Source: an archaeon (lineage in GTDB: Archaea; Nanobdellota; Nanobdellia; Pacearchaeales; GW2011-AR1). From it: a stretch of 64,000 bases of DNA. Numbering within the stretch: the stretch's first letter is position 1; every line of letters starts with the position of its first letter. A program made the position numbers and the translations under genes. Shown here one piece after another: positions 5,229 through 62,297 of this stretch. The notes under the pieces are model-generated. The model worked only from the letters and a program-made list of their open reading frames with translations. It made no database searches and had not been told where the DNA came from. The stretch covers positions 95,341 through 159,340 of the forward strand of contig JAYONY010000002.1 of the NCBI GenBank assembly GCA_038121585.1. Direction: 5' to 3'.

Positions 5229-5837
5229 CTACGCAAAAACGATTGTTGTAGCAATAACTCCCATAAGAAGTATGAACAAGATAAGAATAGCGATGTGTGT
5301 GTCTCGCACTTTTTGAATTGGCTCTTTGCGCTTTATGGCACATGCTCCTCCAGGACAGAGTTTGGCTTTTTCTTTATTGAAGAGATTATAGAGTTTGCAT
5401 CCGATGCAAATGCCAAATGCCGCTTCAAAAAATAAGAGGGTAAGGCATATGAGGCAAATGCTAAGGTTGAGTGGGCCGCGAACATCAAATGTAACAACAA
5501 GGAAAAACATGGTCACTGCAAGTGCCCATCCGAGTAACCAGGCGAATTTTTTCTGTGGTGCTCCTGCATACTCGACTGTTTGATTGCGAACAAATATGCG
5601 TCCAAGAATCATGGCAGGGGAAAATTGCGGGGAGATAAAAAGTCTGATTGTAAAATCAGAGAGAAAAATGATAACAAATAATTTGATGTAGTTGAAATTG
5701 CCAAGTAGCCAAGCGTTCATAAATGCAATAAATGCGCCTAGAAACATAATCCCTGCTGCAGCGCGTACTTCTCGCTCATTAACGACTCGAACTTCAACTC
5801 CAGGTACTTTCTCTCCAAATCCAAACAGTGTTTTCAT
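5229..5837 (-). CDS. DUF4395-like membrane protein with C-terminal Cys cluster
   Basis: VVNEREVRAAAGIMFLGAFIAF, four helices, then CIGCKLY..CPGGAC. Confidence 0.45.
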   Translation of the reverse strand: MKTLFGFGEKVPGVEVRVVNEREVRAAAGIMFLGAFIAFMNAWLLGNFNYIKLFVIIFLSDFTIRLFISPQFSPAMILGRIFVRNQTVEYAGAPQKKFAWLLGWALAVTMFFLVVTFDVRGPLNLSICLICLTLLFFEAAFGICIGCKLYNLFNKEKAKLCPGGACAIKRKEPIQKVRDTHIAILILFILLMGVIATTIVFA

Positions 5838-5922
5838 ACCTGAGTGGTTTTTCAGATGTTTATAAAGCTAGAGTAAACAGGGTAAATGAACCTTTTTTAT
5901 ACTCGTTTATGCTAGTAGCTAT

Positions 5923-6393
5923 ATGAAAATTAGTTGGGGTGTTTTGATTGGGCTTATTATTGTGTGTAATCTAGTTGGTGCACTGGGCACGCTTTGGACG
6001 AGTCCTGATGGGGAATGGTATTCGTCAATTACCAAGCCGAGTTTTAACCCTCCTAGTTGGGTGTTTGGTCCTGTCTGGACAATGTTATTTACTCTAATGG
6101 GTGTTGCACTCTATCTTGTAGTGCAGGCTCCTGATTCACGAGATAAAAAAATGGGACTTATCTTTTTCGGAGTACAATTTATTTTCAATGTGCTCTGGAG
6201 TTACTTGTTTTTTGGAATAAATAATCCGTTAGCGGCATTTGTAGAAATTCTAGTGTTGCTTGGTCTTATCATTTGTACTGGGATATACTTTTTCAGAGTT
6301 CGCAAAGCTGCAGGTTACTTGCTTATTCCCTATATTTTCTGGGTTAGCTTTGCAAGTGTTTTAACATTTAGTATCTGGAGATTAAATGGGTAA
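5923..6393 (+). CDS. tspO: TspO/MBR tryptophan-rich sensory protein
   Basis: WYSSITKPSFNPPSWVFGPVWTMLFTLMG and five TM helices. Confidence 0.85.
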   Translation: MKISWGVLIGLIIVCNLVGALGTLWTSPDGEWYSSITKPSFNPPSWVFGPVWTMLFTLMGVALYLVVQAPDSRDKKMGLIFFGVQFIFNVLWSYLFFGINNPLAAFVEILVLLGLIICTGIYFFRVRKAAGYLLIPYIFWVSFASVLTFSIWRLNG

Positions 6394-6625
6394 GCAAACA
6401 TACATTATCGCACAAAAACCTAACCTGCCAATTATTGTTTGGTTTGTAAGTTTTGTATTATTACAGTTTTTTTCTATTGGGGTTGTTCACACGTTGCTTG
6501 CGCTTATATCCTTCGGAGCTATTTTTACTTGGGCATGGCTTGAAATCTTTCAAGGGGTTAATGCTTTTAGAAAAGTTCTTGGGGGGGTTGTAATGGCCTT
6601 TATTCTACTCTCTCGAATCTTCTAA
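6386..6625 (+). CDS. Small membrane protein
   Basis: 79 aa, two to three helices. Its start overlaps the tspO stop by 8 nt. Confidence 0.4.
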   Translation: MGKQTYIIAQKPNLPIIVWFVSFVLLQFFSIGVVHTLLALISFGAIFTWAWLEIFQGVNAFRKVLGGVVMAFILLSRIF

Positions 6626-33604: not shown

Positions 33605-35539
33605 TTATAGTTTTGTTTTTCTGAGTAAGTTTGCGTTTGTTACAACAGTGATGCTTGATGCTGCCATGGCTATTTCTGCGATGATTGGGTGCAATACTCC
33701 TGCAATAGCTAACGGGATAGCAACTACATTATATGCGAATGCCCAGAAGAGGTTTTGTTTGATTTTACGAAATGTTCCTTTTGAGAGGTTTATTGCTTGA
33801 GGGATACTAATGAGGGATCCGTTTGCTGAGACAATATCTCCTGCTTCTATTGCAATGTCTGTTCCAGTACCCATTGCAATACCTACATTTGCTTGCTTAA
33901 GCGCTGGAGCGTCATTGACCCCATCACCAACAAACGCTACCATCCCTTTTTGTTGTAATTCCATTACTTTCTTTGATTTATCTTCAGGCAATACATTCGC
34001 AATAACCTCGTCAATACCAACTGATTTCGCAATTGCTTTCGCGGTTCGTTCATTGTCTCCTGTGAGTATGACTGTTTTGTATCCTTGTTTTTGTAAATAG
34101 GCGATGACTTTTTTCGCTTCTTCTTTTGGGCTGTCTGCAACTGCAATCGCTCCAATAGCTTTCTTCCCTTCAGCAATAATCATGGTGGTCTTACCTTCGT
34201 TTTCAAATTGCGTAACTGTTTCTTTTACTGATTTTGTGTTGATGTTTTTGTCTTGCATTAATCGTTCATTTCCAATAGTGTATGATAGTTTACCTATTGT
34301 TCCGATAACTCCCTTTCCTCTGATGATTGAAAATTTTGTTACTTTTTTTGGTGTTTTGAGCTTTGCATAGTTTACTATTGCTTTGCCAACTGGGTGTTCT
34401 GATAAGTTCTCTATTGAGGCTGCAATTTCAACCATTGCTTTCTCTTGTTTTTTAGTTACTGCGAATACGTCTGTCACGACAGGTTTTCCATGCGTGAGTG
34501 TTCCTGTTTTATCGAATACGATTGTTTTGATTTCTTTCATGGTTTGTATTGCTTCTCCTTTGCGAATGAGTATTCCTTTTTTCGCGCCCATGCCGCTTCC
34601 GACCATGAGTGCTATGGGGGTTGCAAGTCCTAATGAGCATGGACATGCTATAACAAGCACTGCTATAGCCACCCCTACAGAGCGACTGAGGTCTCCGGTA
34701 ATGAGTATCCAGGCAAGAAATGTAATTGCTGATAGGACTAGAATTATTGGGACGAACACACTCGTTATTTTGTCAGCTACTTTTTGGATGGGTACTTTGG
34801 TTCCTTGTGCTTCTTCAACTAGTTCGATAATATGTGCTAAGAAGGTGTCTTCTCCGACTTTTGTCGCTTTGACATATAATATTCCATCTTGATTGATTGT
34901 TGCTCCAATGACTGAACTCCCTTTCGTTTTATCAACGGGAATACTCTCACCGGTTACCATTGCTTCATCTACTGCACTATTTCCTTTTGTTACAATGCCG
35001 TCTGTGGGGATTTTTTCTCCTGGTTTTATTATCATTATGTCTCCTACTGTGAGTTCTGTAATTGCTATTTCAACTTCTTCTTTGCCACGTAGTACTCGTG
35101 CTTTTTTTGCGCCTAGTTCGAGTAGTTTCATGATTTCTTTTGATGCACGGCCTCGTGCTTTTGCTTCTACAAATTTGCCGGTGATAAAAATGGTCATTAT
35201 CATTGAGCTTACTCCTGAGTAATCTTGTGAGAGTTCAAAGTATGCGAAAAATCCTGTGAGGTATGCTATGACTGTGCCTAGGGCGATGAGGGAGTCCATG
35301 TTAAAGTAGAATGTAAAGAGTCCTCGAAAGCCCATTTTTACAGTGTTCCATCCTACGATGAAGATTATGGGGAATCCAAGTACTAGTAGCACAATTGGCA
35401 TCATGTTCATTGGGACAATATGCACTCCAAATAGCATGCCTGCATACATGATTATCATTATGGGGATAGTTAGAGCCCATGCTGCTATCATTTTGCGCTT
35501 CCACATGCGGCTTTCTAGTTCTTCAATGGAGTCGGGCAT
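33605..35539 (-). CDS. copA: Copper-translocating P1B-type ATPase (no fused HMA domain)
   Basis: TGES, CPC ([13 protein letters not shown]), DKTGTLT, GDGVNDAP. Confidence 0.9.
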   Translation of the reverse strand: MPDSIEELESRMWKRKMIAAWALTIPIMIIMYAGMLFGVHIVPMNMMPIVLLVLGFPIIFIVGWNTVKMGFRGLFTFYFNMDSLIALGTVIAYLTGFFAYFELSQDYSGVSSMIMTIFITGKFVEAKARGRASKEIMKLLELGAKKARVLRGKEEVEIAITELTVGDIMIIKPGEKIPTDGIVTKGNSAVDEAMVTGESIPVDKTKGSSVIGATINQDGILYVKATKVGEDTFLAHIIELVEEAQGTKVPIQKVADKITSVFVPIILVLSAITFLAWILITGDLSRSVGVAIAVLVIACPCSLGLATPIALMVGSGMGAKKGILIRKGEAIQTMKEIKTIVFDKTGTLTHGKPVVTDVFAVTKKQEKAMVEIAASIENLSEHPVGKAIVNYAKLKTPKKVTKFSIIRGKGVIGTIGKLSYTIGNERLMQDKNINTKSVKETVTQFENEGKTTMIIAEGKKAIGAIAVADSPKEEAKKVIAYLQKQGYKTVILTGDNERTAKAIAKSVGIDEVIANVLPEDKSKKVMELQQKGMVAFVGDGVNDAPALKQANVGIAMGTGTDIAIEAGDIVSANGSLISIPQAINLSKGTFRKIKQNLFWAFAYNVVAIPLAIAGVLHPIIAEIAMAASSITVVTNANLLRKTKL

Positions 35540-35745
35540 TATTCTACTACCTTGTAGCCTACTGCAGCAACTGCCTTTTTGAGATCTTCAAGTTTTACAT
35601 CATCTTCTACTTCAATGATTGCTTTGTGTGTCATGACACTGACGCTGACGCTGGTTACGCCAGGCACTTTTTTCAAACTCTTTTCAACGTTTCCCCCGCA
35701 CGCAGCGCAGTGCATGCCTGTAATAGCTAATTTTATTTTCTTCAT
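35539..35745 (-). CDS. copZ: Copper chaperone, HMA domain
   Basis: [15 protein letters not shown]. Its stop overlaps the copA start. Confidence 0.85.
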   Translation of the reverse strand: MKKIKLAITGMHCAACGGNVEKSLKKVPGVTSVSVSVMTHKAIIEVEDDVKLEDLKKAVAAVGYKVVE

Positions 35746-36236
35746 GGTTTCCCTCCTTTTTTCTTTTGTTTAGGAATTTCACAATGAATTTTTTTTGTAA
35801 GGTTGTAATAGCTAAATCCGAGTAGTGCAATGATTGCGAGTTGGATTTCAATACCTCCTAGGGGGAGTACTGCAAAACTAAACGTAATACCAAAAATGCC
35901 TAGGATAAGTGGGAGAATGCCTCCAACGCAGATTGGACAGACTCCCACCGCCATCCCTCCAACCGCACCAACGCTTGCAAGCACTGATGATTTCTTACTT
36001 CCCCGCCGAAGTTTAAATCCATGATAGATATAGCATCCGTTAATGCCAATAAGTGCTGCAATGATGAGCGAGAGAATAAGTGAGGTGATGAGTTTGAACC
36101 AATTAGTTGTTGCTGCGTATTGCATCGCAATTTCAAGACTAATCCAGAAGTCAGTAATGTACGACACGAACCCAAAGTACGCTATGAACAATACTATGAA
36201 AATATAGATGTACGGTTTTTGTAGGATAAGCTTCAT
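35742..36236 (-). CDS. Four-TM membrane protein with intramembrane CPxC motif
   Basis: GVCPICVGG; paralog 55943..56422 has GVCPVCVGG. Confidence 0.5.
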   Translation of the reverse strand: MKLILQKPYIYIFIVLFIAYFGFVSYITDFWISLEIAMQYAATTNWFKLITSLILSLIIAALIGINGCYIYHGFKLRRGSKKSSVLASVGAVGGMAVGVCPICVGGILPLILGIFGITFSFAVLPLGGIEIQLAIIALLGFSYYNLTKKIHCEIPKQKKKGGKP

Positions 36237-36457
36237 TGTTTCTCCTGTAGTTGCTTAACGAGCCATACAATAAATAAGACAAGTGCAATAATAACAAGCA
36301 CCATGAGTAAAGGGCCGAAAAAACCACCCATAAAGTACGAGCTTCCCATCATGCCGTAGCCCATCATGCCAAACCCTCCTCCGAATAGGAGAATCACGAG
36401 TAGAATTAGTCCTCCAATAATGAGTGCTTGTGAAGTATCCTCTTTTTTGCGTGCCAT
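36233..36457 (-). CDS. Small membrane protein with Gly/Met-rich segment
   Basis: GGGFGMMGYGMMGSSYFMGGFFGP lies between two helices. Confidence 0.5.
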   Translation of the reverse strand: MARKKEDTSQALIIGGLILLVILLFGGGFGMMGYGMMGSSYFMGGFFGPLLMVLVIIALVLFIVWLVKQLQEKQ

Positions 36458-36459
36458 GA

Positions 36460-36846
36460 TTACTTGACGATCAGTTTCCCTTGTCCCATGCCCATACTAC
36501 AAGCGAATACGTATGTTCCTGGTGTATCAGGCGTGAAGGTAAGTGCATCATTTGCAGTTGCTAAGTATTTATTGATACCTAAGCTTCGAATGGTAAAATC
36601 TCGAAAACAACCGAACACACTATCATCAAGTCGAATACTCACTGGTTTGCCAGCTTCAACCTCAACACTTTCTGGATAATAATTATAATCCTTATAACTC
36701 AAAACAACTTCTTGCGTTGTTCCGTCAGATGGTAGTGCGACAGCATTTCCAGATAGTGCTGGTGTATCTTTACCGCTCACTAAGAAAAATCCAGCTACTA
36801 CAATTACTGCGAAAATTGCAATTCCGTACTTTGTTGTTTTTTCCAT
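36460..36846 (-). CDS. Membrane-anchored cupredoxin-like domain protein (Cupredoxin_1-type)
   Basis: YNYYPESVEVEAGKPV and YVFACSMGMGQGKLIV. Paralog at 56576..56962. Confidence 0.65.
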   Translation of the reverse strand: MEKTTKYGIAIFAVIVVAGFFLVSGKDTPALSGNAVALPSDGTTQEVVLSYKDYNYYPESVEVEAGKPVSIRLDDSVFGCFRDFTIRSLGINKYLATANDALTFTPDTPGTYVFACSMGMGQGKLIVK

Positions 36847-36848
36847 TG

Positions 36849-37532
36849 TTACTGAAAGAGCAAACTGCGTGGCCCGTACACCATGAGCCAGGTTGTTGTA
36901 ATCGTGAGTATAAAGCTCAGGAATACTGTGAGAAACTGATCCTCCTTTTTAGTTCTTTGCTCTCCGCGTGTTTCTGTATAGAGCATGTAATTAAGACCTA
37001 CTAGAATTGCACCGCATATAAGGAACATAATTGCACCCGCTACTTTAAGCGGTTCATTAATCATCATAACAGCAGTCATTGCGCCCATGAGGCCTCCCAT
37101 AAAGCCTGCCATGAGTCCTTCCATAGCGCCCATAACCCCACAGCACTTACCGTTCCATACTCCTAAGAAAATACCTACGGTCATGCCATAGATGCCTCCG
37201 TAAAACATACCGTTTGTCGCACCAGTATAGAATCCTGCTAAAAAGCCTGCCATCATACCAATAGTCATGCCAATCATCATGCCAGTCATGCAGGGGAATT
37301 GTTTGAACGCACGCACTTGTCGCATTGAAGGCAGAATTAGTGCGTAACTCAGAGCTGCAAAGAATAACCAGAAACCGTAGCGTGGAAGGAAATCGGTAAC
37401 TGTTCTAAGTTTTACAATGTAGAGTATGCCAAGTGTTAGAAATGATGTAACGAGTGAAATGAAAATTGTCTTAATTAACTCTCCTTCAACGCCTTCGCCA
37501 TTCAAGGCTTTTGTAAATTCTTTGAAGCTCAT
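36849..37532 (-). CDS. Uncharacterised Met/Gly-rich polytopic membrane protein
   Basis: MTGMMIGMTIGMMAGFLAGFYTGATNGMFYGG, KCCGVMGAMEGLMAGFMGGLMGAMT. Paralog at 56987..57670. Confidence 0.55.
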   Translation of the reverse strand: MSFKEFTKALNGEGVEGELIKTIFISLVTSFLTLGILYIVKLRTVTDFLPRYGFWLFFAALSYALILPSMRQVRAFKQFPCMTGMMIGMTIGMMAGFLAGFYTGATNGMFYGGIYGMTVGIFLGVWNGKCCGVMGAMEGLMAGFMGGLMGAMTAVMMINEPLKVAGAIMFLICGAILVGLNYMLYTETRGEQRTKKEDQFLTVFLSFILTITTTWLMVYGPRSLLFQ

Positions 37533-37570: not shown

Positions 37571-37584
37571 TGAAACTAGTTTCA
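37571..37584. promoter_or_regulatory. Perfect palindrome TGAAACTAGTTTCA between divergent TATA boxes (candidate operator, cassette A)
   Basis: Located 9 nt from TTAAATAAA (minus-strand operon) and 7 nt from TTTAAAC (regulator gene). Confidence 0.6.
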
Positions 37585-37618: not shown

Positions 37619-38110
37619 ATGGAAAACAAACAAGTAGGGTACTTGCTCTTAGGTATTACTGTTCTTCTAATATTTATCATCTACTTGTTTAATGCTGCAT
37701 TGCATGAAATAGTCAATGCTTCATGTTCAGAAGCAGGGCATGGTGACTCCTGTCCAATGTATAATACGATTAATCGACAAACGTATCTTTCCATAGGTAT
37801 TACTTCGCTAGTTGGGTTACTCGGATTATTTATGATTTTCACTAAGCCAGCTAAAGAAGTTATTGTTAAGACAAAAACTGTTACGAAACCTAAGAAGGTC
37901 TTTGATATTTCTGAACTTACAAAAGAAGAGTTACGGGTGTTTGAACTTGTTAAGGAGCAGAAAGCGGTTTTCCAAGCAGATCTTATTGAAAAAACAGGCT
38001 TTGGGAAGGCTAAAATGACTCGTATTATTGATCGTCTAGAGGGGAAGCGTATTGTAGAGCGAAAACGTCGCGGAATGACTAATATTGTAGTGCTGTTAGA
38101 AGAAGATTAA
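37619..38110 (+). CDS. Membrane-tethered winged-helix regulator with Cys/His/Met loop (candidate copper sensor)
   Basis: TM1, loop CSEAGHGDSCPM, TM2, then FQADLIEKTGFGKAKMTRIIDRLEGKRIVERKRRGMTNIVV (wHTH). Paralog at 62344..62838. Confidence 0.6.
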   Translation: MENKQVGYLLLGITVLLIFIIYLFNAALHEIVNASCSEAGHGDSCPMYNTINRQTYLSIGITSLVGLLGLFMIFTKPAKEVIVKTKTVTKPKKVFDISELTKEELRVFELVKEQKAVFQADLIEKTGFGKAKMTRIIDRLEGKRIVERKRRGMTNIVVLLEED

Positions 38111-53413: not shown

Positions 53414-55345
53414 TTAGATCTTTTTTCTTCTCAATAAATTAGCGTTGGTTACTACGGTGATGCTTGATGCTGCCATTGCAATTTCTGCGATTACTGGGTG
53501 TAGTAGTCCTGCTATTGCGAGTGGTATTGCGATTACGTTGTAGGCGAATGCCCAGAAGAGGTTTTGTTTTATTTTGCTGAATGTTGATCGTGAGAGGTTG
53601 ATTCCTTGTACTACTCCTTCTAGTGATCCTTTTGCGAGTACGATGTCTCCTGCTTCTATTGCTATGTCTGTTCCTGTTCCCATTGCTATGCCTACGTTTG
53701 CTTGTTTGAGTGCTGGTGCGTCATTGATTCCATCGCCTACGAATGCTACCATTCCTTCTTTTTGGAGTGCTTCGACTTTTTTTGCTTTGTCTTCTGGTAG
53801 TACGTTGGCGATTACTTCGTCTATTCCTACTTCTCGTGCTATTGCTTGTGCTGTGCGTTCGTTGTCTCCTGTGATCATGACTGTTGTGTAGCCTTCGTGT
53901 TTGAGACGTACTATTGCTTTTCTTGAGTCGTCTTTTACTGCGTCTGCGACTCCTATTACTCCGAGCACTTTGTTGTTTTCTGCTACTATCATTGTTGTCT
54001 TTCCATCGTTCTCTAGTTTTTCTAGGTGTGGTTTGATTTTTGTGAGTGGTATTTTCTTTTCTTTCATGAGGCGTGCGTTTCCGATGTACATTTGTTTTTT
54101 GTTGATTATTCCTTGTACTCCGCGTCCTCGTAGTATTTTGAATTTGGTTACTTTTTTGTAGTTTTTGATGTTTGCGTGTTCTACTATTGATTTGGCTATT
54201 GGGTGTTCGCTGAGTTTTTCTAGTGATGCTGCTTTTGCTATCATGTCTTGTTCTTTTGATTTTGTGAGTGCGTGGATGTTTGTGACTTCTGGCTTTCCTT
54301 TTGTTATAGTCCCTGTTTTGTCGAATACTACTGTTTTGACTTCTTTCATTGTTTGTATTGCTTCTCCTTTTCGTATGAGGATGCCTTTTTTTGCGCCGAT
54401 GCCTGAGCCTACCATAAGTGCTATTGGTGTTGCGAGTCCTAGGGAGCAGGGGCATGCTATGACGAGTACTGAGATTGCTACACCTACCGCGCGGCTGATG
54501 TCTTGTGTGAAGATCCACCAGTTGAAGAATGTGAGGAGTGCTACCATGAGGATTATTGGTACGAAGACGTTGGTGATTTTATCAGCTACTTTTTGTATTG
54601 GTACTTTTGTTCCTTGTGCTTCTTCGACGAGTTCTATGATGTGGGCTAGGAATGTGTCTCCGCCGACTTTTGTTGCTTTGATGTAGAGTATGCCGTCTTG
54701 GTTTATTGTTGCTCCGATGACGGTACTTTTTGGTTTTTTGTCTGTTGGTATGCTTTCGCCTGTGACCATGCTTTCATCTACTGAGCTATCTCCTTTTGTG
54801 ACTATTCCGTCTGTTGGGATTTTTTCTCCTGGTCGTACTACCATTATATCTCCAATTTTTACATCTTCTATTGGGACTTCGATTTCTTCTTTTCCTTGTA
54901 GTATTATTGCTTTTTTTGCTCCTAGTTCTAGTAGTTTTCGTATTTCTGAGCTTGCTCGTCCTTTGGCTTTTGATTCGATGTATTTTCCGGTGATGAATAT
55001 GGTCATGATCATTGCTGATACTCCTGAGTAGTCTTCAAAGCCATAGAATGAGAGTATTCCTGTAAAGTAGGCTATTACTGTTCCTAGTCCTATGAGGGAG
55101 TCCATATTGAAGTAGAATGTGTAGAATCCTCTGATGCCACTTCGTATTGTCTGCCAGCCAATTATGAATATTACGGGGAATCCAAGTATGAGTAGTGCTA
55201 TTGGCATTGTTCCCATCGGTATGATTGGCATACCAAACATCATTCCGGAGTACATGATTGCCATTATGGGGATGGTGAGTGACCATGCCCATATGAGCTT
55301 CCGCTTCCAACTTTTGATTTCTTTTTCTTCTATTGATTCTTCCAT
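53414..55345 (-). CDS. copA: Copper-translocating P1B-type ATPase, copy 2
   Basis: [32 protein letters not shown]. Collinear with 33605..35539. Confidence 0.9.
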
Positions 55346-55557
55346 TATTCTATTTTGACTACTTTGTATCCTGCTTTTGCGACTGCTGCTTTTAGGTCGT
55401 CTTCGCTTACTGAGTCTTCTGCTTCGATTATTCCTTTGTGTGTCATGACGCTTACGCGTACTTCTTTCACGCCGTCGACTTTTTTGAGGCTTTTTTCAGC
55501 GTTTCCTCCACATGCTGCGCAGTGCATTCCTTCTATGGTTATTTTTATTTTTTTCAT
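55345..55557 (-). CDS. copZ: Copper chaperone, HMA domain, copy 2
   Basis: Trimmed to ATG 55557 ([18 protein letters not shown]). ATGA overlap with the arsR-like stop. Confidence 0.85.
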
Positions 55558-55922
55558 TGCTTCCCTCCTTTTGATGATTGTATTATGTGGATGCAATGTG
55601 CGTTCATGTGGTCTTCGATTAGGTCCATTAGTGGTTTGATTGTTGTTTTATTGAGGGCGTAGTATCTGTATTTTCCTTTAACTTTTACGTGTACGAATCC
55701 GCATTTTTTTAGTCGTGCTAGGTCGTGTGATATTGCTGTTTGTTCTGCTTCTAGGTGTTTTGTGAGTTCTGTTACGTTCATCTCTTGTTTTCGTAGTGTA
55801 TTGATTATTTTGATTCTTGATTCTGATACGAGTGTTCCGAAGAATAGTTTGTAGGCGTCAAGTACTTCTGTTTCATCATGTCCTTTTGTGTGACATTTTT
55901 TTAATATGTTTTTATTTATCAT
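55554..55922 (-). CDS. ArsR/SmtB-family metalloregulator
   Basis: LVSESRIKIINTLRKQEMNVTELTKHLEAEQTAISHDLARLKKCGFV. Confidence 0.8.
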   Translation of the reverse strand: MINKNILKKCHTKGHDETEVLDAYKLFFGTLVSESRIKIINTLRKQEMNVTELTKHLEAEQTAISHDLARLKKCGFVHVKVKGKYRYYALNKTTIKPLMDLIEDHMNAHCIHIIQSSKGGKQ

Positions 55923-55942: not shown

Positions 55943-56422
55943 TTATTTAAGTTTTTGTGTGGTTTTAGGAAATAATTTTTTGTTCATCCACCAAATATTT
56001 GTTCCCAGTAATACGGCCATTAGTAGTTGTATTTCGACTCCATTCCAAGGTAGGACTGCGAATGAGAATGAAATTCCTAAAATGCTTAAAACTACTTGTA
56101 GCAAGCCGCCTACACATACGGGGCAGACTCCAACGAATAATCCTCCGACTGCACCTGCGCTTGCTACTGTGGCTCCTTTTTTACAGCTTTTGCGTAGTGC
56201 ATAGTGGTAATAGGCGTAGCTTAGGTTTATTGATACTAGGACAGCGATGATTATTGAGAGGACTAATGATGTTATGAGTTTAAACCAGCTTGTTGTTTGT
56301 GCATATTCTAGCGCTACAGAGAAGATTGTTATAAAGTCACTGAGCCATACAGCTAGAGAAAAATATACTATGAATCCCAGTATTGTTATATATTTGTAAG
56401 GTTTTTGTAGTAAGAATTTCAT
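55943..56422 (-). CDS. Four-TM membrane protein with intramembrane CPxC motif, copy 2
   Basis: GVCPVCVGG. Paralog of 35742..36236. Confidence 0.5.
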   Translation of the reverse strand: MKFLLQKPYKYITILGFIVYFSLAVWLSDFITIFSVALEYAQTTSWFKLITSLVLSIIIAVLVSINLSYAYYHYALRKSCKKGATVASAGAVGGLFVGVCPVCVGGLLQVVLSILGISFSFAVLPWNGVEIQLLMAVLLGTNIWWMNKKLFPKTTQKLK

Positions 56423-56575: not shown

Positions 56576-56962
56576 TTATTGTACTATTAACTTCCCTGCT
56601 CCCATTCCCATGCTACATGCAAAGGTGTAGGTTCCTGGTTTATCAATAGTAAATTCTAGTACATCGTTTGGTGTTGCAAGGTATTTTTTGATATTGGTTC
56701 CTCTAACTACAAGGTCTCTAAAACATCCGTACACGCTATCGTCTAGTTGTAGTCGTACTGGTTTTCCAGCATCTACCGTAACTGTTTCTGGATAATAATT
56801 GTAGTCTTTCATGCCTATGGAGAGTTCTTGTGCATCGCCAGTTCCTACTGCTACTACATTACCTGACACTCCTTGGCCAGAGTCTCCTTTTACCATAAAT
56901 ACACCTCCTCCTACAATTAATAAGAAGATCGCAATACCATACAATGTTGATTTGCTAACCAT
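56576..56962 (-). CDS. Membrane-anchored cupredoxin-like protein, copy 2
   Basis: YNYYPETVTVDAGKPV and YTFACSMGMGAGKLIV. Confidence 0.65.
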   Translation of the reverse strand: MVSKSTLYGIAIFLLIVGGGVFMVKGDSGQGVSGNVVAVGTGDAQELSIGMKDYNYYPETVTVDAGKPVRLQLDDSVYGCFRDLVVRGTNIKKYLATPNDVLEFTIDKPGTYTFACSMGMGAGKLIVQ

Positions 56963-56986: not shown

Positions 56987-57670
56987 TCATTGGAATAGTG
57001 CGCTCCTTGGCCCGAATACCATGAGCCAGATCGTGAGGACTGTTAGTACAAAGCTTAGTACGAGTGTTAGGAATTGGTCTTCTGTATGTGTTCTTTCTTC
57101 GTTTTTGGTTTCTTTGTATAGCATGTAGTTGAGTCCTGCTAGTATTGCTCCGCATACGATGAATACAATTACTCCTGCTGCTTTTAGGTTATCATTATAC
57201 ATCATGACTGCGGTCATTGCTCCCATGAGCCCTCCCATGAATCCTGCCATTAGGCCTTCCATAACTCCCATGACGCCGCAGCATTTCCCTTTCCATATAC
57301 CTAAGAAAATGCCTACTGCCATACCGAAAACACCGCCCCAAAACATGCCGTTGGTCGCTCCCGTATAAAATCCTGCTAGGAATCCTGACATCATGCCTAC
57401 TGTCATTCCGATCATCATTCCGGTCATACATGGAAATGCTTTGTACGCGCGGACTTGCCGTATTGAGGGCATTACTAATGCGTAACTGAGTATTGCAAAA
57501 AATAAGAAGAATCCGTACTTTGGAATGAAGTTGTCGATGTATTGTAGTTTTAGGAAGTAAAACAAACCAAGTGTAATGAATGAAGTAAGTAGAGAGAGAA
57601 ATATCGTTTTTAGTAATTCGCCTTCAACACGAGTGCCTTGTAATTCTTTTAGAAATTCTTTTGTTGTCAT
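56987..57670 (-). CDS. Uncharacterised Met/Gly-rich polytopic membrane protein, copy 2
   Basis: Trimmed to ATG 57670 (MTTKEFLKEL), with ATGA overlap with the upstream gene. MTGMMIGMTVGMMSGFLAGFYTGATNGMFWGG, KCCGVMG. Confidence 0.55.
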   Translation of the reverse strand: MTTKEFLKELQGTRVEGELLKTIFLSLLTSFITLGLFYFLKLQYIDNFIPKYGFFLFFAILSYALVMPSIRQVRAYKAFPCMTGMMIGMTVGMMSGFLAGFYTGATNGMFWGGVFGMAVGIFLGIWKGKCCGVMGVMEGLMAGFMGGLMGAMTAVMMYNDNLKAAGVIVFIVCGAILAGLNYMLYKETKNEERTHTEDQFLTLVLSFVLTVLTIWLMVFGPRSALFQ

Positions 57671-57894
57671 CTTTTCTGTAGTTGTTTTTGTATTAGTATG
57701 AATAGGAGCACTATTATTAGTATTAAAACGATACTCATTAGGATCCCGTTGATTGACCCTCCCCACATGTGTCCATACCATTGGCCCATCATCCCATGGT
57801 GATCATAGAAATCCTCTCCTGAGTGTGCGGTGGTCAAACTTATTAGATAGGCAAATGCTGCAGTGATACTAAGACCTATTTTTTTAGTTTTCAT
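57667..57894 (-). CDS. Small secreted/anchored His/Met-rich protein
   Basis: Signal-like N-terminus, HSGEDFYDHHGMMGQWYGHMWGG, C-terminal TM. Confidence 0.5.
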   Translation of the reverse strand: MKTKKIGLSITAAFAYLISLTTAHSGEDFYDHHGMMGQWYGHMWGGSINGILMSIVLILIIVLLFILIQKQLQKR

Positions 57895-57931: not shown

Positions 57932-57945
57932 TGAAACTAGTTTCG
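57932..57945. promoter_or_regulatory. Operator-like palindrome TGAAACTAGTTTCG (one mismatch) upstream of cassette B
   Basis: Lies 9 nt upstream (minus orientation) of TTAAATAG. Embedded in a ~43-bp block repeated at 60830..60872. Confidence 0.55.
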
Positions 57946-58111: not shown

Positions 58112-58489
58112 TTACCGAAGTTGTTTTTTGCTTCTCCAATCAAGACAACTATACATTACAAGTGCTATAATCGGGAATTGCAGGTAGCTAAAGTCCCAGG
58201 TACCTGCAGTGATTCCTGTGAGTGTCATAGGTATAAGTGGCCAAAGTCCTGTGTAGAGACTCACCCACCATTTCCGATAAGTAAAAAGTGCTACTGCTGC
58301 TGCAATGTCCAGCGCACCTACTATTCTAACAAGCAGCTGTGATGCGGGGAATCCTGATTCTTGGATAAGCATTGTCATTCCTGGACTGCCGAGTAGTGCT
58401 GCCATTCCATGTACGAAGAAATTGTAGATGAGATATACTGCTGCTAGTGAGCCTAGTCCTTTTTTTGCAAGTTGTACGTAGTTGTTCAT
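58112..58489 (-). CDS. Four-TM membrane protein (paralog of 62848..63333)
   Basis: GLWPLIPMTLTGI aligns with GMWPLVPTTLTFI. Confidence 0.45.
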   Translation of the reverse strand: MNNYVQLAKKGLGSLAAVYLIYNFFVHGMAALLGSPGMTMLIQESGFPASQLLVRIVGALDIAAAVALFTYRKWWVSLYTGLWPLIPMTLTGITAGTWDFSYLQFPIIALVMYSCLDWRSKKQLR

Positions 58490-58971
58490 GGTAACACTAT
58501 GAGTTTTCCGTAATGGTTATGATGGCCTGGACCGCACATGACTGAACACCCATAGGTATATTCTCCTGGTGCTGGTGCCATGAATTCCCCAACTGTTGTT
58601 TTTCCGGGTTCTATGCGCATATTAAAGTTAAGTTGTGGTATTGCAATGCCGTGTGCTACATCTTTGCTTGTTGCTTTAATTCGTATGAGCTCTCCTGTTC
58701 TAACAGTAATTGTTGGTTCGCTCCAATCATATTGCCATGCTTCAAGGTTGATTTCTCGTGTGTTGCAATCTCCCATGTAGCCACCGCCCATGTAGTGACA
58801 TGGTGTGCCTGCCATTTCTCGCGCTGGGTCTGTTGGTAAGATTTGGCCGCTTAGGCCTTCAGCTTCGATTGCTAATGCATTGCCAGTAATACTCCCTGAC
58901 TGAGTTATGAACAAGCCAACAGCTACGATGACTACAAACATGCCTATGCCTATTTTAGTTGTTTTCTCCAT
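58486..58971 (-). CDS. Membrane-anchored cupredoxin with CuA-type ligand spacing
   Basis: DVAH-x34-CSVMCGPGHHNH gives H-x34-C-x3-C-x3-H-x2-H, counted directly. Also PCHYMGGGYMGDC. Confidence 0.6.
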   Translation of the reverse strand: MEKTTKIGIGMFVVIVAVGLFITQSGSITGNALAIEAEGLSGQILPTDPAREMAGTPCHYMGGGYMGDCNTREINLEAWQYDWSEPTITVRTGELIRIKATSKDVAHGIAIPQLNFNMRIEPGKTTVGEFMAPAPGEYTYGCSVMCGPGHHNHYGKLIVLP

Positions 58972-58984
58972 ATGCTTGCTCCTT

Positions 58985-60784
58985 TCATGCTACTGTAAAG
59001 CTTGTCATCATTCCGGCTTCGAGGTGTTCTGCTATATGGCAGTGCATCATCCACTCGCCTGGATTGGTGACGTCTACAAGTATGTCTACAGTTGAGCCTA
59101 TTGGTACGAGTACCGTATCCTTCCACACTTTATTATCGACAGGCTCCCCATCTATATGAGTTATAATAAATCTTTGTCCGTGTAGGTGTATGGGGTGTTG
59201 CATTGGGTGCATTGATTCGGGATCGTTGAAGAGGCGTATTTTTACAATGTCTCCGATGCTTGCGGTCATGCTGATGTCCATGTTTGTTGCTCCGCTTGCA
59301 GTGTCGAGTATTTCCCAAGTTACTTGGTCTCCTGGCGCGCGCATGTTCATCTCATCTTCCCACTCAATACGCTCTTCGTGTTCTTCTGCTTCTGCTTCGA
59401 GTGCTACTCTTTCTTCTTCTGTGCAATCGCCCATTACAATGCCTCCCATTTCATGGCAGGGTAATGTTGCCATTGCATCCATGAAGTCTGTAAGATCAAC
59501 GTTGAGATTAAGCTCATAATCGACTGCTTTATCGAAGTATGGTGCAAAGTCATTTATGTCTGCTCGGATTGTTGGGTTAGTTAGATCGTTGAAGAATTGT
59601 TCTGAGTAGTCATCTATCTCTGTTGTCTCTTCAACGGTGATTGTGCTCAACACGTATGACTTGTGAGGGTTCACGTTGAGCAGTGTGTAAGTGCCTGCAT
59701 CTGCAAAGTATACATCTACAATGTAGCGTTCTGCTGGTGCGATGATAAGTTCATCAATTAATGTTTCTGTTTCATATTGGCCGAGGTCTCCGCCGACTAG
59801 TTTCATCTGCGCTCCTGGAATGCTGAGTTTGTAGGGTCGCACATTAGCCACGTTTGTGATATAGTAACGAACCACTTCTCCTTCATTAGCTGTTTGGCGG
59901 TGATCTACATCTCCATTAACTAACATTACATTTCCGAATCTGCCCATGACTGCGAAATTTGCGTGTTCTCCTCCGAATGGTACGATACTTCCATCGTCAC
60001 CTAGGAGAAGGTCATCTAGCACAATAAGCTCTTCTCGATTGACTGGATTGTAAGCTTCAACTGGTATTACGAGCATGTTGCCTGCCATGCCTGCATCTTG
60101 TTGTATGTCTTCTCTGATGTGCGGGTGGTACCAGAAGATTCCATCATCGGGGAAGTATAGTTCGTATTCGAAGGTGTCTCCTGGTTGCATTGGCGGTTGG
60201 GAAACATCTGGCACTCCATCGTTTGCGAGGTCATGTCGTAGTCCGTGCCAATGTACTGTTGTTGGAAGGTCGATATTGTTAGTAAACACTACTTTAATTG
60301 TTGAGTCTTGTCGCACACGTAGTGCTGGTCCCGGAATCATGCCATTGTACCCGTACATGATAAGCTCTTCACCATTAATTTTCTTAGTGATAATGTCTGC
60401 TGTCATAGTGTATGTTTCGCCATCTGCAATGTCAACAATCGTACTACTTTGTACTGGTGTTAGTTCTGAAGCCGCGCGGCTTTGGCCTGGCAGGAAGTCT
60501 GCTCCAATGGTTGATTCAAATTGATTAGGTTGCTCTTCTAAGCGTTCAGCAAGTTTATTATAGGGCTCACATCCTTGCATTTCAGACATGTACAAGCAAT
60601 GTTCGTACATGAACTGCTCGTTTTGATCAAGCTCTGAAAGGCTTGTTACACTATCAAACTCGTCTGCGGGGAGGTTGAGTTCCGCGACCATTGAATGAGC
60701 ATCTCCTTCCTGAGAATCAAGGATATAACCCAGTGAGATTACAATTGCAAGTAGTGCTAATATGAAAATTCCTTTTTTATCCAT
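58985..60784 (-). CDS. Multicopper oxidase with acidic Cys/His/Met insert
   Basis: HWHGL, WYHPH, HPIHLHG, HCHIAEHLEAGMM. Insert with PCHEMGGIVMGDC. Confidence 0.85.
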   Translation of the reverse strand: MDKKGIFILALLAIVISLGYILDSQEGDAHSMVAELNLPADEFDSVTSLSELDQNEQFMYEHCLYMSEMQGCEPYNKLAERLEEQPNQFESTIGADFLPGQSRAASELTPVQSSTIVDIADGETYTMTADIITKKINGEELIMYGYNGMIPGPALRVRQDSTIKVVFTNNIDLPTTVHWHGLRHDLANDGVPDVSQPPMQPGDTFEYELYFPDDGIFWYHPHIREDIQQDAGMAGNMLVIPVEAYNPVNREELIVLDDLLLGDDGSIVPFGGEHANFAVMGRFGNVMLVNGDVDHRQTANEGEVVRYYITNVANVRPYKLSIPGAQMKLVGGDLGQYETETLIDELIIAPAERYIVDVYFADAGTYTLLNVNPHKSYVLSTITVEETTEIDDYSEQFFNDLTNPTIRADINDFAPYFDKAVDYELNLNVDLTDFMDAMATLPCHEMGGIVMGDCTEEERVALEAEAEEHEERIEWEDEMNMRAPGDQVTWEILDTASGATNMDISMTASIGDIVKIRLFNDPESMHPMQHPIHLHGQRFIITHIDGEPVDNKVWKDTVLVPIGSTVDILVDVTNPGEWMMHCHIAEHLEAGMMTSFTVA

Positions 60785-60849: not shown

Positions 60850-60863
60850 TGAAACTAGTTTCG
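60850..60863. promoter_or_regulatory. Operator-like palindrome TGAAACTAGTTTCG overlapping the stop codon of the upstream oxidase gene
   Basis: The TAG stop of 60855..62246 lies inside the palindrome. A TATA-like TTAAATAG follows, then ATG 60784. Confidence 0.55.
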
Positions 60864-62246
60864 TTTAACAACTTCTACTATGCTTAACATTCCTGCTTCT
60901 GCATGTTCTAATATGTGACAGTGAAAAACCCATCTTCCAACGTCTTCTGCTATGAATGCGATGTCAACTTCTTCTCTGCTGTTTATCATTACTGTGTCTT
61001 TCCATCCTCTTGCTTTTTCAGGGATTCCATTTCGTGATAAGATTATGAATTTTTGTCCGTGTAGGTGCATTGGGTGTGGCTGGCCTTGTGTGTTTTTAAT
61101 TCTGAATTTGACGATTTTTCCTTCTTGGATTGTAAATGTTTCTGGATTTTCTGGAAATGCTTTGTTGTTGATTGTCCAACGTAGATTCATATGTCCTGCC
61201 ATTACTCCTATGAGGTCGGCTTGATAGTCAGGTTCTTTTTGTAGTAATGGTTCCATATCTAGTGTTTGTTCAAAAGTTTCTAATCCGTTGGTATCAATTT
61301 TTTCATCACTTGTGATAAGTGTGGCGATTTGAGTTGAACCTCTAGAAGTGTGATGGGTGAGTGTTATCGATTCTTGAGTGGTTTCTGGTAAGAGAATATC
61401 ATAGCGCTCTCCAGGGCTGATTGTTAGGAGGTTTGTCATATAGTGCTCTGAAGGTCCAATATCCATACCTACCACTGTGAATTGCTCTCCTCCAAATTGT
61501 AGGTTGAAGCTGCGTGCGTTTGCTGTGTTAACAATACGTAGGCGGTTATTTTCAAGCTGAATTGTGGGTTTTTCTTTTCCGTTTACAAGCAGTATGTTTC
61601 CGAATCGTCCGTGCATGACTCCTAGGTTAAAGCTTCTGAATTCGAAATCGTTTCCTAAGAGGGCATCATCAAGTACAAGTATGTTTCCTGGTGGTATTTG
61701 TGTGTTTTCTTCAATTAGTAGTACTCCTTGGAGTCCTGATTCGACTTGTTTGTGTGCATCAACGTGACTATGGTACCAATAAAGTCCAGGGTTTCTAAGT
61801 TCTAGTTCGTATGTAAATGACTCTCCTGGCAGTATTGGTTCTTGAGTCACTTCTGGTACGCCATCTTCAACGTTAGCAAGCTGCAAGCCATGCCAGTGAA
61901 CTGTTGTTGGTTCATCAAGGTTGTTGTGCACAATAACGTTCTGTGTAGTTCCTACTGCGCCTTTTATGAGGGGTCCGGGTATTTGTTGATTGTATGAGAA
62001 AACCGTTGTCTTCTTTCCTTCAATGAATTCATATCTTTCCTTTGAGATTGTAAGTTCAAAATCTCTTGGAGTGTTTTGGGCGCTATGTGAGGAGTAATCG
62101 GCGGCACGTACTGTTTCTTCATTTATGTTTACTTGAGTGCTTTCGCTATTCAAGAATATAAGGGTTAGGAGTAATGCAGTCACTGCTAATGCGAGCAATG
62201 TATTTCGGATAGTATTTTTTCGTATCGTAAAAATATTTCTTGTCAT
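60855..62246 (-). CDS. Multicopper oxidase (CueO/CopA-like)
   Basis: HWHGL, WYHSH, HPMHLHG, HCHILEHAEAGM. Confidence 0.85.
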   Translation of the reverse strand: MTRNIFTIRKNTIRNTLLALAVTALLLTLIFLNSESTQVNINEETVRAADYSSHSAQNTPRDFELTISKERYEFIEGKKTTVFSYNQQIPGPLIKGAVGTTQNVIVHNNLDEPTTVHWHGLQLANVEDGVPEVTQEPILPGESFTYELELRNPGLYWYHSHVDAHKQVESGLQGVLLIEENTQIPPGNILVLDDALLGNDFEFRSFNLGVMHGRFGNILLVNGKEKPTIQLENNRLRIVNTANARSFNLQFGGEQFTVVGMDIGPSEHYMTNLLTISPGERYDILLPETTQESITLTHHTSRGSTQIATLITSDEKIDTNGLETFEQTLDMEPLLQKEPDYQADLIGVMAGHMNLRWTINNKAFPENPETFTIQEGKIVKFRIKNTQGQPHPMHLHGQKFIILSRNGIPEKARGWKDTVMINSREEVDIAFIAEDVGRWVFHCHILEHAEAGMLSIVEVVKRN

Positions 62247-62283: not shown

Positions 62284-62297
62284 TGAAACTAGTTTCA
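62284..62297. promoter_or_regulatory. Perfect palindrome TGAAACTAGTTTCA in divergent promoter (oxidase / regulator)
   Basis: Lies between ATG 62246 (minus) and ATG 62344 (plus). Confidence 0.6.

Follow-up and report, generated by a model that had tools for sequence, protein, structure and literature searches.

Two copper gene cassettes of an archaeon of the GW2011-AR1 lineage (Nanobdellota, Nanobdellia, Pacearchaeales; assembly GCA_038121585.1, contig JAYONY010000002.1) each contain a gene for a membrane protein of 227 amino acids (aa) that is rich in Met and Gly, and the question raised by this locus is what such a protein does next to a Cu(I) pump. The two proteins are encoded on the minus strand at 36849..37532 (copy 1) and 56987..57670 (copy 2) of the window, a term that we use for the whole 64,000-nucleotide stretch of DNA under analysis (contig positions 95,341 to 159,340). 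An initial annotation of this DNA had taken them, together with two small neighbouring proteins, for possible Cu(I)-handling membrane proteins. Our results support this view of the 227-aa proteins, with their function read from sequence and context: they probably belong to a widespread, unnamed seven-helix family that binds Cu(I) or Ag(I) on a ladder of transmembrane Met residues and that serves as an optional accessory of the CopZ/CopA system. Below we refer to them as Met-ladder proteins.

Conservation of the Met and Gly pattern

The four open reading frames (ORFs) behind the initial annotation, namely those of the two 227-aa proteins and of two small proteins of 74 aa (36233..36457) and 75 aa (57667..57894), are all present on the minus strand and contain every string that had been quoted from them; MTGMMIGMTIGMMAGF, KCCGVMG and GVMGAMEGLMAGFMGGLMGAMT occur in both copies of the 227-aa protein. 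These copies are 73% identical over an ungapped alignment. For copy 2 the ORF finder proposed a frame of 264 aa; homology backs the start of the 227-aa protein, with a 4-nucleotide (nt) overlap between it and the stop of the 75-aa gene. Met accounts for 21 and 20 of the 227 residues (9.3% and 8.8%, respectively), compared with 2.6% in the long ORFs of the window, and residues 76-160 hold 16 Met and 20 Gly within 85 positions. Copy 1 has no His at all.

We measured conservation over 110 near-full-length representative clusters, obtained by clustering at 50% identity. Ten Met residues (M85, M86, M89, M93, M134, M141, M145, M149, M152 and M156) are conserved in 98-100% of these representatives, N107 in 95%, E138 and D/E160 in 93% each, and the three Cys residues C81, C131 and C130 in 85%, 77% and 61%, respectively. 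In the third and in the fifth transmembrane (TM) helix, the Met residues are confined to a single 120-degree arc (resultant 0.83 and 0.81), a clustering on one face that seven randomly placed positions match in 0.06% of trials (P about 6e-4 for TM5). Met recurs every 3-4 residues along TM5 from one membrane face to the other, and Gly occupies every fourth residue in TM3, TM4 and TM5. Since the ten Met positions are so strictly conserved, the Met/Gly content of the 227-aa proteins is not low complexity, and the position-specific conservation persists down to about 27% identity. The concern, raised with the initial annotation, that this composition might be lost in orthologs is thereby answered.

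We also considered an internal duplication of the 227-aa protein. TM3 and TM4 can be aligned (hhalign probability 95%) with a common register of Gly at every fourth residue, and hhalign gave no alignment of TM3 with TM5 or of TM1-2 with the remainder of the protein. We took the TM3/TM4 likeness as the similarity of a periodic motif, not as a proven repeat.

A family without a curated model or a known fold

A word-indexed search returned 1547 homologs. The best 120 of them are 225-276 aa long (nearly all 227-231 aa) and 63-75% identical, and they come from Woese-, Pace- and Nanoarchaeota; all are unnamed or hypothetical except for three with JGI labels, which are spurious or uninformative. When 1.84 billion cluster representatives were searched exhaustively with a profile, the family comprised 593 representative clusters at E <=1e-3 and 134 at E <=1e-30.

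No family of Pfam-A 2025 or NCBIfam 20.0 is matched by the 227-aa protein at the curated cut-off. The best matches below threshold were ECF_trnsprt (20.7 bits, cut-off 30.7) and QoxD (17.5 bits, cut-off 85.6), and we rejected both the ECF-transporter match and the JGI label 'oxidase subunit 4' as sub-threshold hydrophobic similarity. Distant relatives reach curated families only via fused HMA, YHS or Cupredoxin_1 domains. The best match in a sequence profile search of the PDB was a pyridoxal kinase (E 0.006), which we judged spurious, and Foldseek comparison of two models with the PDB gave no match (best E 0.16 to 0.36, TM-score <=0.30). No paper that describes the family came up in literature searches, a text search for the motif MMIGMT among them. 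The initial annotation had been unable to place the proteins in a named family, and the hidden Markov model, PDB and Foldseek searches likewise assign neither a family nor a fold. Nor did Pfam, NCBIfam, the PDB or Foldseek reveal a match to a characterised non-metal family.

The AlphaFold2 (AF2) model of the 227-aa protein, for which the input alignment consisted of diverse sequences from the window and from other loci, has a predicted local distance difference test score (pLDDT) of 86.7 and a predicted TM-score (pTM) of 0.85, with all five models at pLDDT 82-87. It contains seven TM helices (residues 17-40, 48-75, 81-107, 109-131, 133-156, 162-188 and 199-219), and single-residue turns link TM3, TM4 and TM5. 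An earlier AF2 model from a shallower alignment agreed with this seven-helix model.

Known copper and mercury transport families differ from this architecture. Copper transporters of the CTR (SLC31) family have three TM helices, with MxxxM in TM2 and GxxxG in TM3; the 227-aa protein has seven TM helices and no Pfam Ctr match, and it shares the MxxxM and GxxxG motifs by convergence only. CopD proteins have about eight TM helices with conserved His, whereas the 227-aa protein has no Pfam match to CopD (PF05425) and copy 1 is devoid of His. MerT has a second Cys pair in a cytoplasmic loop; here we found no Pfam or NCBIfam MerT match and only one Cys-Cys pair, which lies in the TM4-TM5 turn.

Copper context, domain fusions and co-occurrence with CopA

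We examined the context of Met-ladder genes at 38 loci from named assemblies, which represent DPANN lineages, uncultured Methanosarcinales, one Patescibacterium and one unclassified bacterium. A Cupredoxin_1 gene directly follows the Met-ladder homolog at about 33 of the 38 loci, and HMA and CopA genes come next as well at most of them. The CxMxM motif is found in every partner cupredoxin, and two of these partners have lipobox signal peptides (LSAC and LSGC).

In the window the partner is a membrane-anchored cupredoxin of 128 aa on the minus strand (copy 1 at 36460..36846, copy 2 at 56576..56962). Copy 1 matches Pfam Cupredoxin_1 at 6.9e-14, has no His, and carries Cys80 and C116-S-M-G-M; copy 2 has the FGCFRD ... 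FACSMGMG motifs as in copy 1. The protein aligns to Streptococcus pneumoniae CupA (4F2E/2MRY) and to the cupredoxin domain of S. pneumoniae CopA (4F2F), and this alignment matches the upstream Cys and the CxMxM loop. Judged by these features it is a CupA-type protein in every respect except the cytoplasmic orientation of CupA, as the window protein is predicted to face outward (see below). A second, longer cupredoxin with a C-terminal Cys/Gly tail (e.g. ...SCGAGGGGCGCGG) is encoded at many loci (L001:7227-7718, L005:6688-7173 and L006:6315-6830, as well as L018, L019, L021, L026, L027, L030, L032, L033 and L038); this tail is not present on the two window cupredoxins.

Many family members carry additional domains. 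An N-terminal extension of at least 50 aa is present in 59 of 122 near-full representatives, 53 of them with CxxC, and Pfam confirmed an HMA domain in all five N-terminally extended proteins that were scanned. One of the five, P0237 (499 aa), combines the HMA domain with six TM helices and a HisKA_3/HATPase histidine kinase; this single representative would be a two-component sensor with the Met domain as its input module. A C-terminal Cupredoxin_1 domain is fused in P0199, P0239, L036, L042 and L040, and three representatives have a Cys/Met-rich C-terminal tail. In L039, an Anaerolineaceae relative (5404-6495) that adjoins a YtkA-like lipoprotein, a YHS domain follows TM6 (4.6e-13). All fused domains that carry a bound ligand are metal-binding modules of copper type. 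No fusion to CopA itself was found among the 150 best representatives.

The L039 locus, which comes from a metagenome-assembled genome, is peculiar in that the Met domain is reduced to 198 aa and its neighbours are genes for a cytochrome b561, a c-type cytochrome and an NnrS-like protein, not CopA. This context hints that, in Chloroflexi, the domain takes part in maturing cuproproteins.

We then compared the distributions of the family and of the pump in 301 genomes of the phylum. The Met-ladder family is present in 73 genomes (60 of 225 genera) and a CopA-type ATPase in 203; both occur together in 71 genomes, and only two genomes have the family without CopA. As the Met-ladder protein is found in about 35% of the CopA-bearing genomes and is almost absent without CopA, it is an optional add-on to the pump. 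The near-obligate adjacency to a cupredoxin gene, the cupredoxin, HMA and YHS fusions, and the co-occurrence with CopA also lend support to the suggestion of the initial annotation that the protein may hand Cu(I) to the cupredoxin, a biochemical function that we infer from this context.

Predicted topology

The domain fusions point to a cytoplasmic N-terminus and an outer C-terminus of the Met-ladder protein. Fused HMA domains begin at about residue 5 and have no signal peptide, so the N-terminus would be cytoplasmic; the TM6-TM7 loop would be cytoplasmic too, because the kinase and YHS domains come after TM6. The fused cupredoxin is placed after TM7 without a further hydrophobic segment and so would lie outside. 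Consistent with this arrangement, the Lys plus Arg count is 6.2 for predicted inside loops versus 1.8 for outside loops (110 representatives). With such a topology C81 and K129-C130-C131 would lie on the cytoplasmic side of the membrane, and the outer face would hold N107 and D160. The separate CupA-like cupredoxin likewise probably faces outward.

Possible path of Cu(I) and competing explanations

Of the possible modes of action, a relay of Cu(I) across the membrane has the best support, and we lean tentatively to its outward form, in which the metal would pass from a cytoplasmic HMA domain over the ladder to the external cupredoxin and possibly on to the co-regulated multicopper oxidases. 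What we propose here for metal binding, for its path through the protein and for its direction is drawn from the conservation, context, fusions, co-occurrence and shared operator that we observed. A CopZ-type HMA domain, which is free in the window genome and fused in about half of the family, would dock at a cytoplasmic cluster of up to three Cys residues (C81 where TM3 begins, C130/C131 in the turn between TM4 and TM5). From there Cu(I) would move along the Met residues that lie 3-4 positions apart on one face of TM5, from M134 to M156, across the whole bilayer. Beside this ladder would stand M82-M93 of TM3 in the inner half of the bilayer and M109/M117 of TM4 in its outer half, with E138 available for charge balance, and the Gly zippers in TM3, TM4 and TM5 would permit tight helix packing. 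At the outer end, the ion at N107/D160 would be exchanged with the membrane-anchored CupA-like cupredoxin through its Cys and CxMxM ligands.

Several points count against this proposal. No energy-coupling module is visible, and outward transport against a Cu(I) gradient would need proton coupling at E138, a position at which about 7% of clusters have Q or H. Nor are the Cys residues universal (61-85%). About two thirds of the CopA-bearing genomes do not have the Met-ladder protein, so it is not essential for export. A continuous Met path in the AF2 model and the sufficiency of a monomer are presumed. Finally, the kinase fusion that is key to the topology is a single representative, with which the YHS domain, the charge bias and the lipoboxes agree.

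The best of the alternatives reverses the direction. By analogy with the transfer from CTR1 to Atox1, with MerP/MerT or with CopC/CopD, the outer Met loops and the cupredoxin might capture (and perhaps reduce) copper, and the ladder might conduct it passively and with high affinity to the Cys cluster and then to CopZ. Inward transfer is favoured by the lack of any ATPase or other energy module in the Pfam and NCBIfam scans and by the distribution of ligands, with only thioether sites within the membrane and thiolates at the cytoplasmic end. Capture motifs reside on the external partners, CopC/CopD sets a precedent for uptake components inside copper-resistance operons, and CupA is reported in a review to reduce Cu(II) in vitro (PMC7558416). 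Outward transfer, on the other hand, is favoured because the gene resides on mobile copper-resistance cassettes together with an exporter, because a common operator joins it to the oxidases in one regulon, and because the HMA domain is fused on the side typical of an exporter donor. Uptake is further disfavoured by the small known need for cytoplasmic copper in tiny DPANN cells and by the futile cycle that uptake followed by export would create. We therefore regard uptake as credible but somewhat unlikely.

The Met-ladder protein might also move no metal at all, and serve as a Cu(I) buffer, as an adaptor that places CopZ and the cupredoxin at CopA, or as a sensor that communicates with the tethered regulator encoded nearby. 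The sensor and adaptor roles are kept alive by the strict dependence on CopA and by the kinase fusion, where the kinase replaces TM7 and thus shows that the domain can serve as a sensor module; the gene of a membrane-tethered regulator is also adjacent at many loci. Nevertheless, the Met ladder crosses the whole bilayer instead of forming a single site, fusions add metal-binding domains on either side of the membrane, as fits transfer across it, and, as noted above, the 150 best representatives include no fusion to CopA. Overall a non-translocating role seems unlikely.

Another conceivable role, a thiol-disulfide or electron conduit similar to DsbD/CcdA that would keep the Cys of the external cupredoxin reduced and carry no metal, could draw on the conserved C81 and C130/C131 and on the functional Cys of the external partner. 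We rejected it as very improbable since every conserved Cys residue is at the cytoplasmic face and the outer half has none, since among the signature residues conservation is lowest for Cys, in contrast to the invariant Met, and since Pfam, the PDB and Foldseek yielded no DsbD/CcdA similarity. A compositional artefact, that is, an ordinary hydrophobic membrane protein such as cytochrome oxidase subunit IV without a role in metal handling, is suggested by the weak QoxD/CyoD and ECF_trnsprt matches and by one JGI name, but it is hardly tenable given scores far under the cut-offs, Met residues invariant at fixed positions, and the copper-specific context and fusions.

Probable shared operator and origin of the two copies

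The link between the Met-ladder genes and the oxidases comes from a shared palindrome. The sequence TGAAACTAGTTTCA occurs in the window at 37571-37584, 57932-57945, 60850-60863 and 62284-62297, giving 8 strand matches versus 0.25 expected. The four sites precede cassette 1, which opens with copy 1 of the 227-aa gene, the 75-aa gene that opens cassette 2 ahead of copy 2, and both multicopper oxidase genes, and they adjoin two genes for membrane-tethered winged helix-turn-helix (wHTH) regulators. An identical 13-mer is present in 12 of 42 loci; about 8 of these have it roughly 40-55 bp ahead of the homologous gene. Given its placement, TGAAACTAGTTTCA is likely the operator of a copper regulon, and the common upstream palindrome would unite the Met-ladder genes, the 75-aa gene and the oxidases in that regulon.

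The genome has only these two copies of the 227-aa gene. In the maximum-likelihood tree copy 1 pairs with the representative P0058 (support 95/93). Copy 2 shares 81% identity with P0015 versus 73% with copy 1, and monophyly of the two copies was seen in 0% of bootstrap trees. A recent duplication of the cassette within the genome, which we considered as an origin, is ruled out by this result: the copies are never sisters, and closer relatives of each are found in other metagenomes. For the same reasons we conclude that the two cassettes were acquired separately.

Small Met-rich proteins of the cassettes

The 74-aa protein (minus strand) has two TM helices and an outward loop GGGFGMMGYGMMG; the 75-aa protein (also minus strand) has a signal peptide or anchor, a His/Met-rich segment DHHGMMGQWYGHMWGG and a TM anchor. 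BLAST found no match between the two (E 0.29), and a database search with the 74-aa protein gave only two matches; the class surfaced only through a profile built from neighbouring loci. A profile of seven 74-aa homologs detects the 75-aa protein at E 2e-6, and on this basis we treat both as distantly related members of one class. Homologs of the 74-aa protein, identified at several cop loci by tblastn and ORF extraction, have an N-terminal TM helix, then a loop rich in G/M/Y (GMMG...YGMMG), and finally another TM helix that ends in ALVLFIVWLVKQLQ. By profile search, members of the class occur at about 10 of the 38 genome loci.

Both window proteins are predicted to expose outward a Met-rich segment of ~20-25 residues in front of the last TM helix, which is His-rich in the 75-aa protein. 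The gene of the latter is the first behind the operator at 57932. Neither protein belongs to the SHOCT family (PF09851), as both end directly after a TM helix; L015, the sole relative of the class with a SHOCT tail, matches weakly and under the cut-off (E 5.6e-4). The variable position and presence of these genes indicate that the class is accessory and not core. Its members probably display the Met/Gly/Tyr/His-rich loop at the outer surface as peptides for copper capture or hand-off, a role that may be likened to that of the CTR1 ectodomain or of PcoE/SilE.

Comparison with known copper systems

A close parallel to the window cassettes is the copY-cupA-copA system of S. pneumoniae, which shares a membrane-anchored, His-less cupredoxin with Cys and CxMxM in an operon with a P1B-1 ATPase. 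In contrast to it, the window cupredoxin is predicted to face outward, the window CopA has no cupredoxin domain, a CopZ-type HMA protein is also present, and the seven-helix Met-ladder protein has no counterpart in Streptococcus. Pneumococcal CupA is described as oriented to the cytoplasm and limited to a few streptococci (PMC7558416). Our results show CupA-type chaperones to be widespread and, in archaea, probably outward-facing, in contrast to the few streptococci and the cytoplasmic location assumed before.

An extracytoplasmic beta-sandwich protein that is paired or fused with a polytopic membrane protein in copper operons is also characteristic of CopC/CopD (PcoC/PcoD, or the fused YcnJ of Bacillus subtilis), for which the direction of transfer is debated as well. 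However, the Met-ladder system has no match to CopD (PF05425) or CopC, relies on a Met ladder instead of the His-rich sites of CopD, and has a partner of CupA type. With eukaryotic CTR1 the family has in common thioether rings of MxxxM type together with GxxxG helix packing, ectodomain motifs rich in Met and His, Cys where the ion would leave on the cytoplasmic side, and a chaperone of HMA fold as the hand-off partner; CTR1 is a trimer of three-TM subunits with two rungs, whereas the Met-ladder protein is a single prokaryotic seven-TM chain with about seven. Stepwise movement of Cu(I)/Ag(I) along successive Met sites and a partner chaperone with a Met site, periplasmic CusF, are features of the resistance-nodulation-division (RND) protein CusA, but CusA is a proton-driven 12-TM trimer of more than 1000 aa in a tripartite pump and has no homology to the Met-ladder protein. 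MerT/MerP resembles the family in its small membrane protein with a vicinal Cys pair and a partner of HMA fold, and MerTP fusions exist; MerT differs in having three TM helices and its Cys pair in TM1 near the outer face, compared with a Cys pair in a cytoplasmic turn and a thioether path in the Met-ladder protein.

Few routes for copper across the cytoplasmic membrane of prokaryotes are known (P1B ATPases, RND pumps, CopD/YcnJ and CcoA), and the uptake side is poorly understood. We put forward, with due reserve, the possibility that the family is a hitherto unrecognised class of prokaryotic translocators for Cu(I)/Ag(I) that need no ATP and have a new fold. Each would be a 'methionine wire' of seven helices in one chain, with a cytoplasmic Cys cluster as its gate, that passes the ion directly between a cytoplasmic HMA chaperone and an extracellular CupA-type cupredoxin and is carried on mobile islands in DPANN archaea, Methanosarcinales and bacteria of the candidate phyla radiation, with a reduced form in Chloroflexi. 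If true, this would add a component to the copper-resistance cassettes exchanged between ultrasmall archaea and bacteria. The family is compact, is found in about one in four of the DPANN genomes sampled, and has neither a curated model nor a solved relative; with invariant residues that are almost all Met, it could offer a clean model for thioether-based conduction of Cu(I).

Organization of the cassettes and neighbouring genes

Cassette 1 extends from 37532 to 33605 on the minus strand. The gaps and overlaps between its genes are only 1-4 nt, from which we conclude that it forms an operon. Its genes encode, in order, the 227-aa protein, the 128-aa cupredoxin, the 74-aa protein, a polytopic membrane protein of 164 aa with GVCPICVGG inside a TM helix (35742..36236), a CopZ-type HMA chaperone of 68 aa with GMHCAACGG (35539..35745; Pfam HMA, 1.1e-16) and a P-type ATPase of 644 aa (33605..35539). 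Cassette 2, which is co-linear with cassette 1, extends from 57894 to 53414 on the same strand and encodes the 75-aa protein, the 227-aa protein, the 128-aa cupredoxin, a 159-aa paralog of the 164-aa protein with GVCPVCVGG (55943..56422), an ArsR/SmtB metalloregulator (55554..55922; NCBIfam HTH_metalloreg, 2.1e-19), a second CopZ-type HMA chaperone (55345..55596), the true start of which is probably an internal ATG, and a P-type ATPase of 643 aa (53414..55345).

P1B-1 ATPases are recognized by CPC in TM4 (TM6 in the eight-helix numbering), YN in the next-to-last TM helix, MxxSS in the last TM helix, and DKTGT. The translation of the 644-aa protein, which matches Pfam E1-E2_ATPase (3.3e-58) and Hydrolase, contains CPC, YN, MAASS and FDKTGT, as expected of a P1B-1 Cu(I)/Ag(I) ATPase, and we annotate it as a CopA without an N-terminal metal-binding domain; the 643-aa copy is 71% identical to it.

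Homologs of the 164-aa protein occur at about 9 of the 38 loci, usually encoded directly after the cupredoxin gene. Its similarity to MerTP is weak and under the cut-off, as is the similarity of the 159-aa paralog to DUF7541. A membrane-tethered winged-helix regulator of 163 aa (37619..38110, plus strand; Pfam DUF7343 and MarR) is divergent from cassette 1, and a homolog of it adjoins the Met-ladder gene at about 15 loci.

Four estuary metagenome runs from a single study contain the stretch 35742-37532 almost verbatim, and runs from a second study contain part of it; we sought RNA evidence for this stretch, and only DNA runs of estuary metagenomes matched. A further membrane-anchored cupredoxin of 161 aa (58486-58971) has a CuA-like CxxxCGxxH motif and COX2/CoxB matches. 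It is translationally coupled with a DoxX-like membrane protein (58112-58489), and the pair sits between cassette 2 and the multicopper oxidase genes (58985-60784 and 60855-62246).

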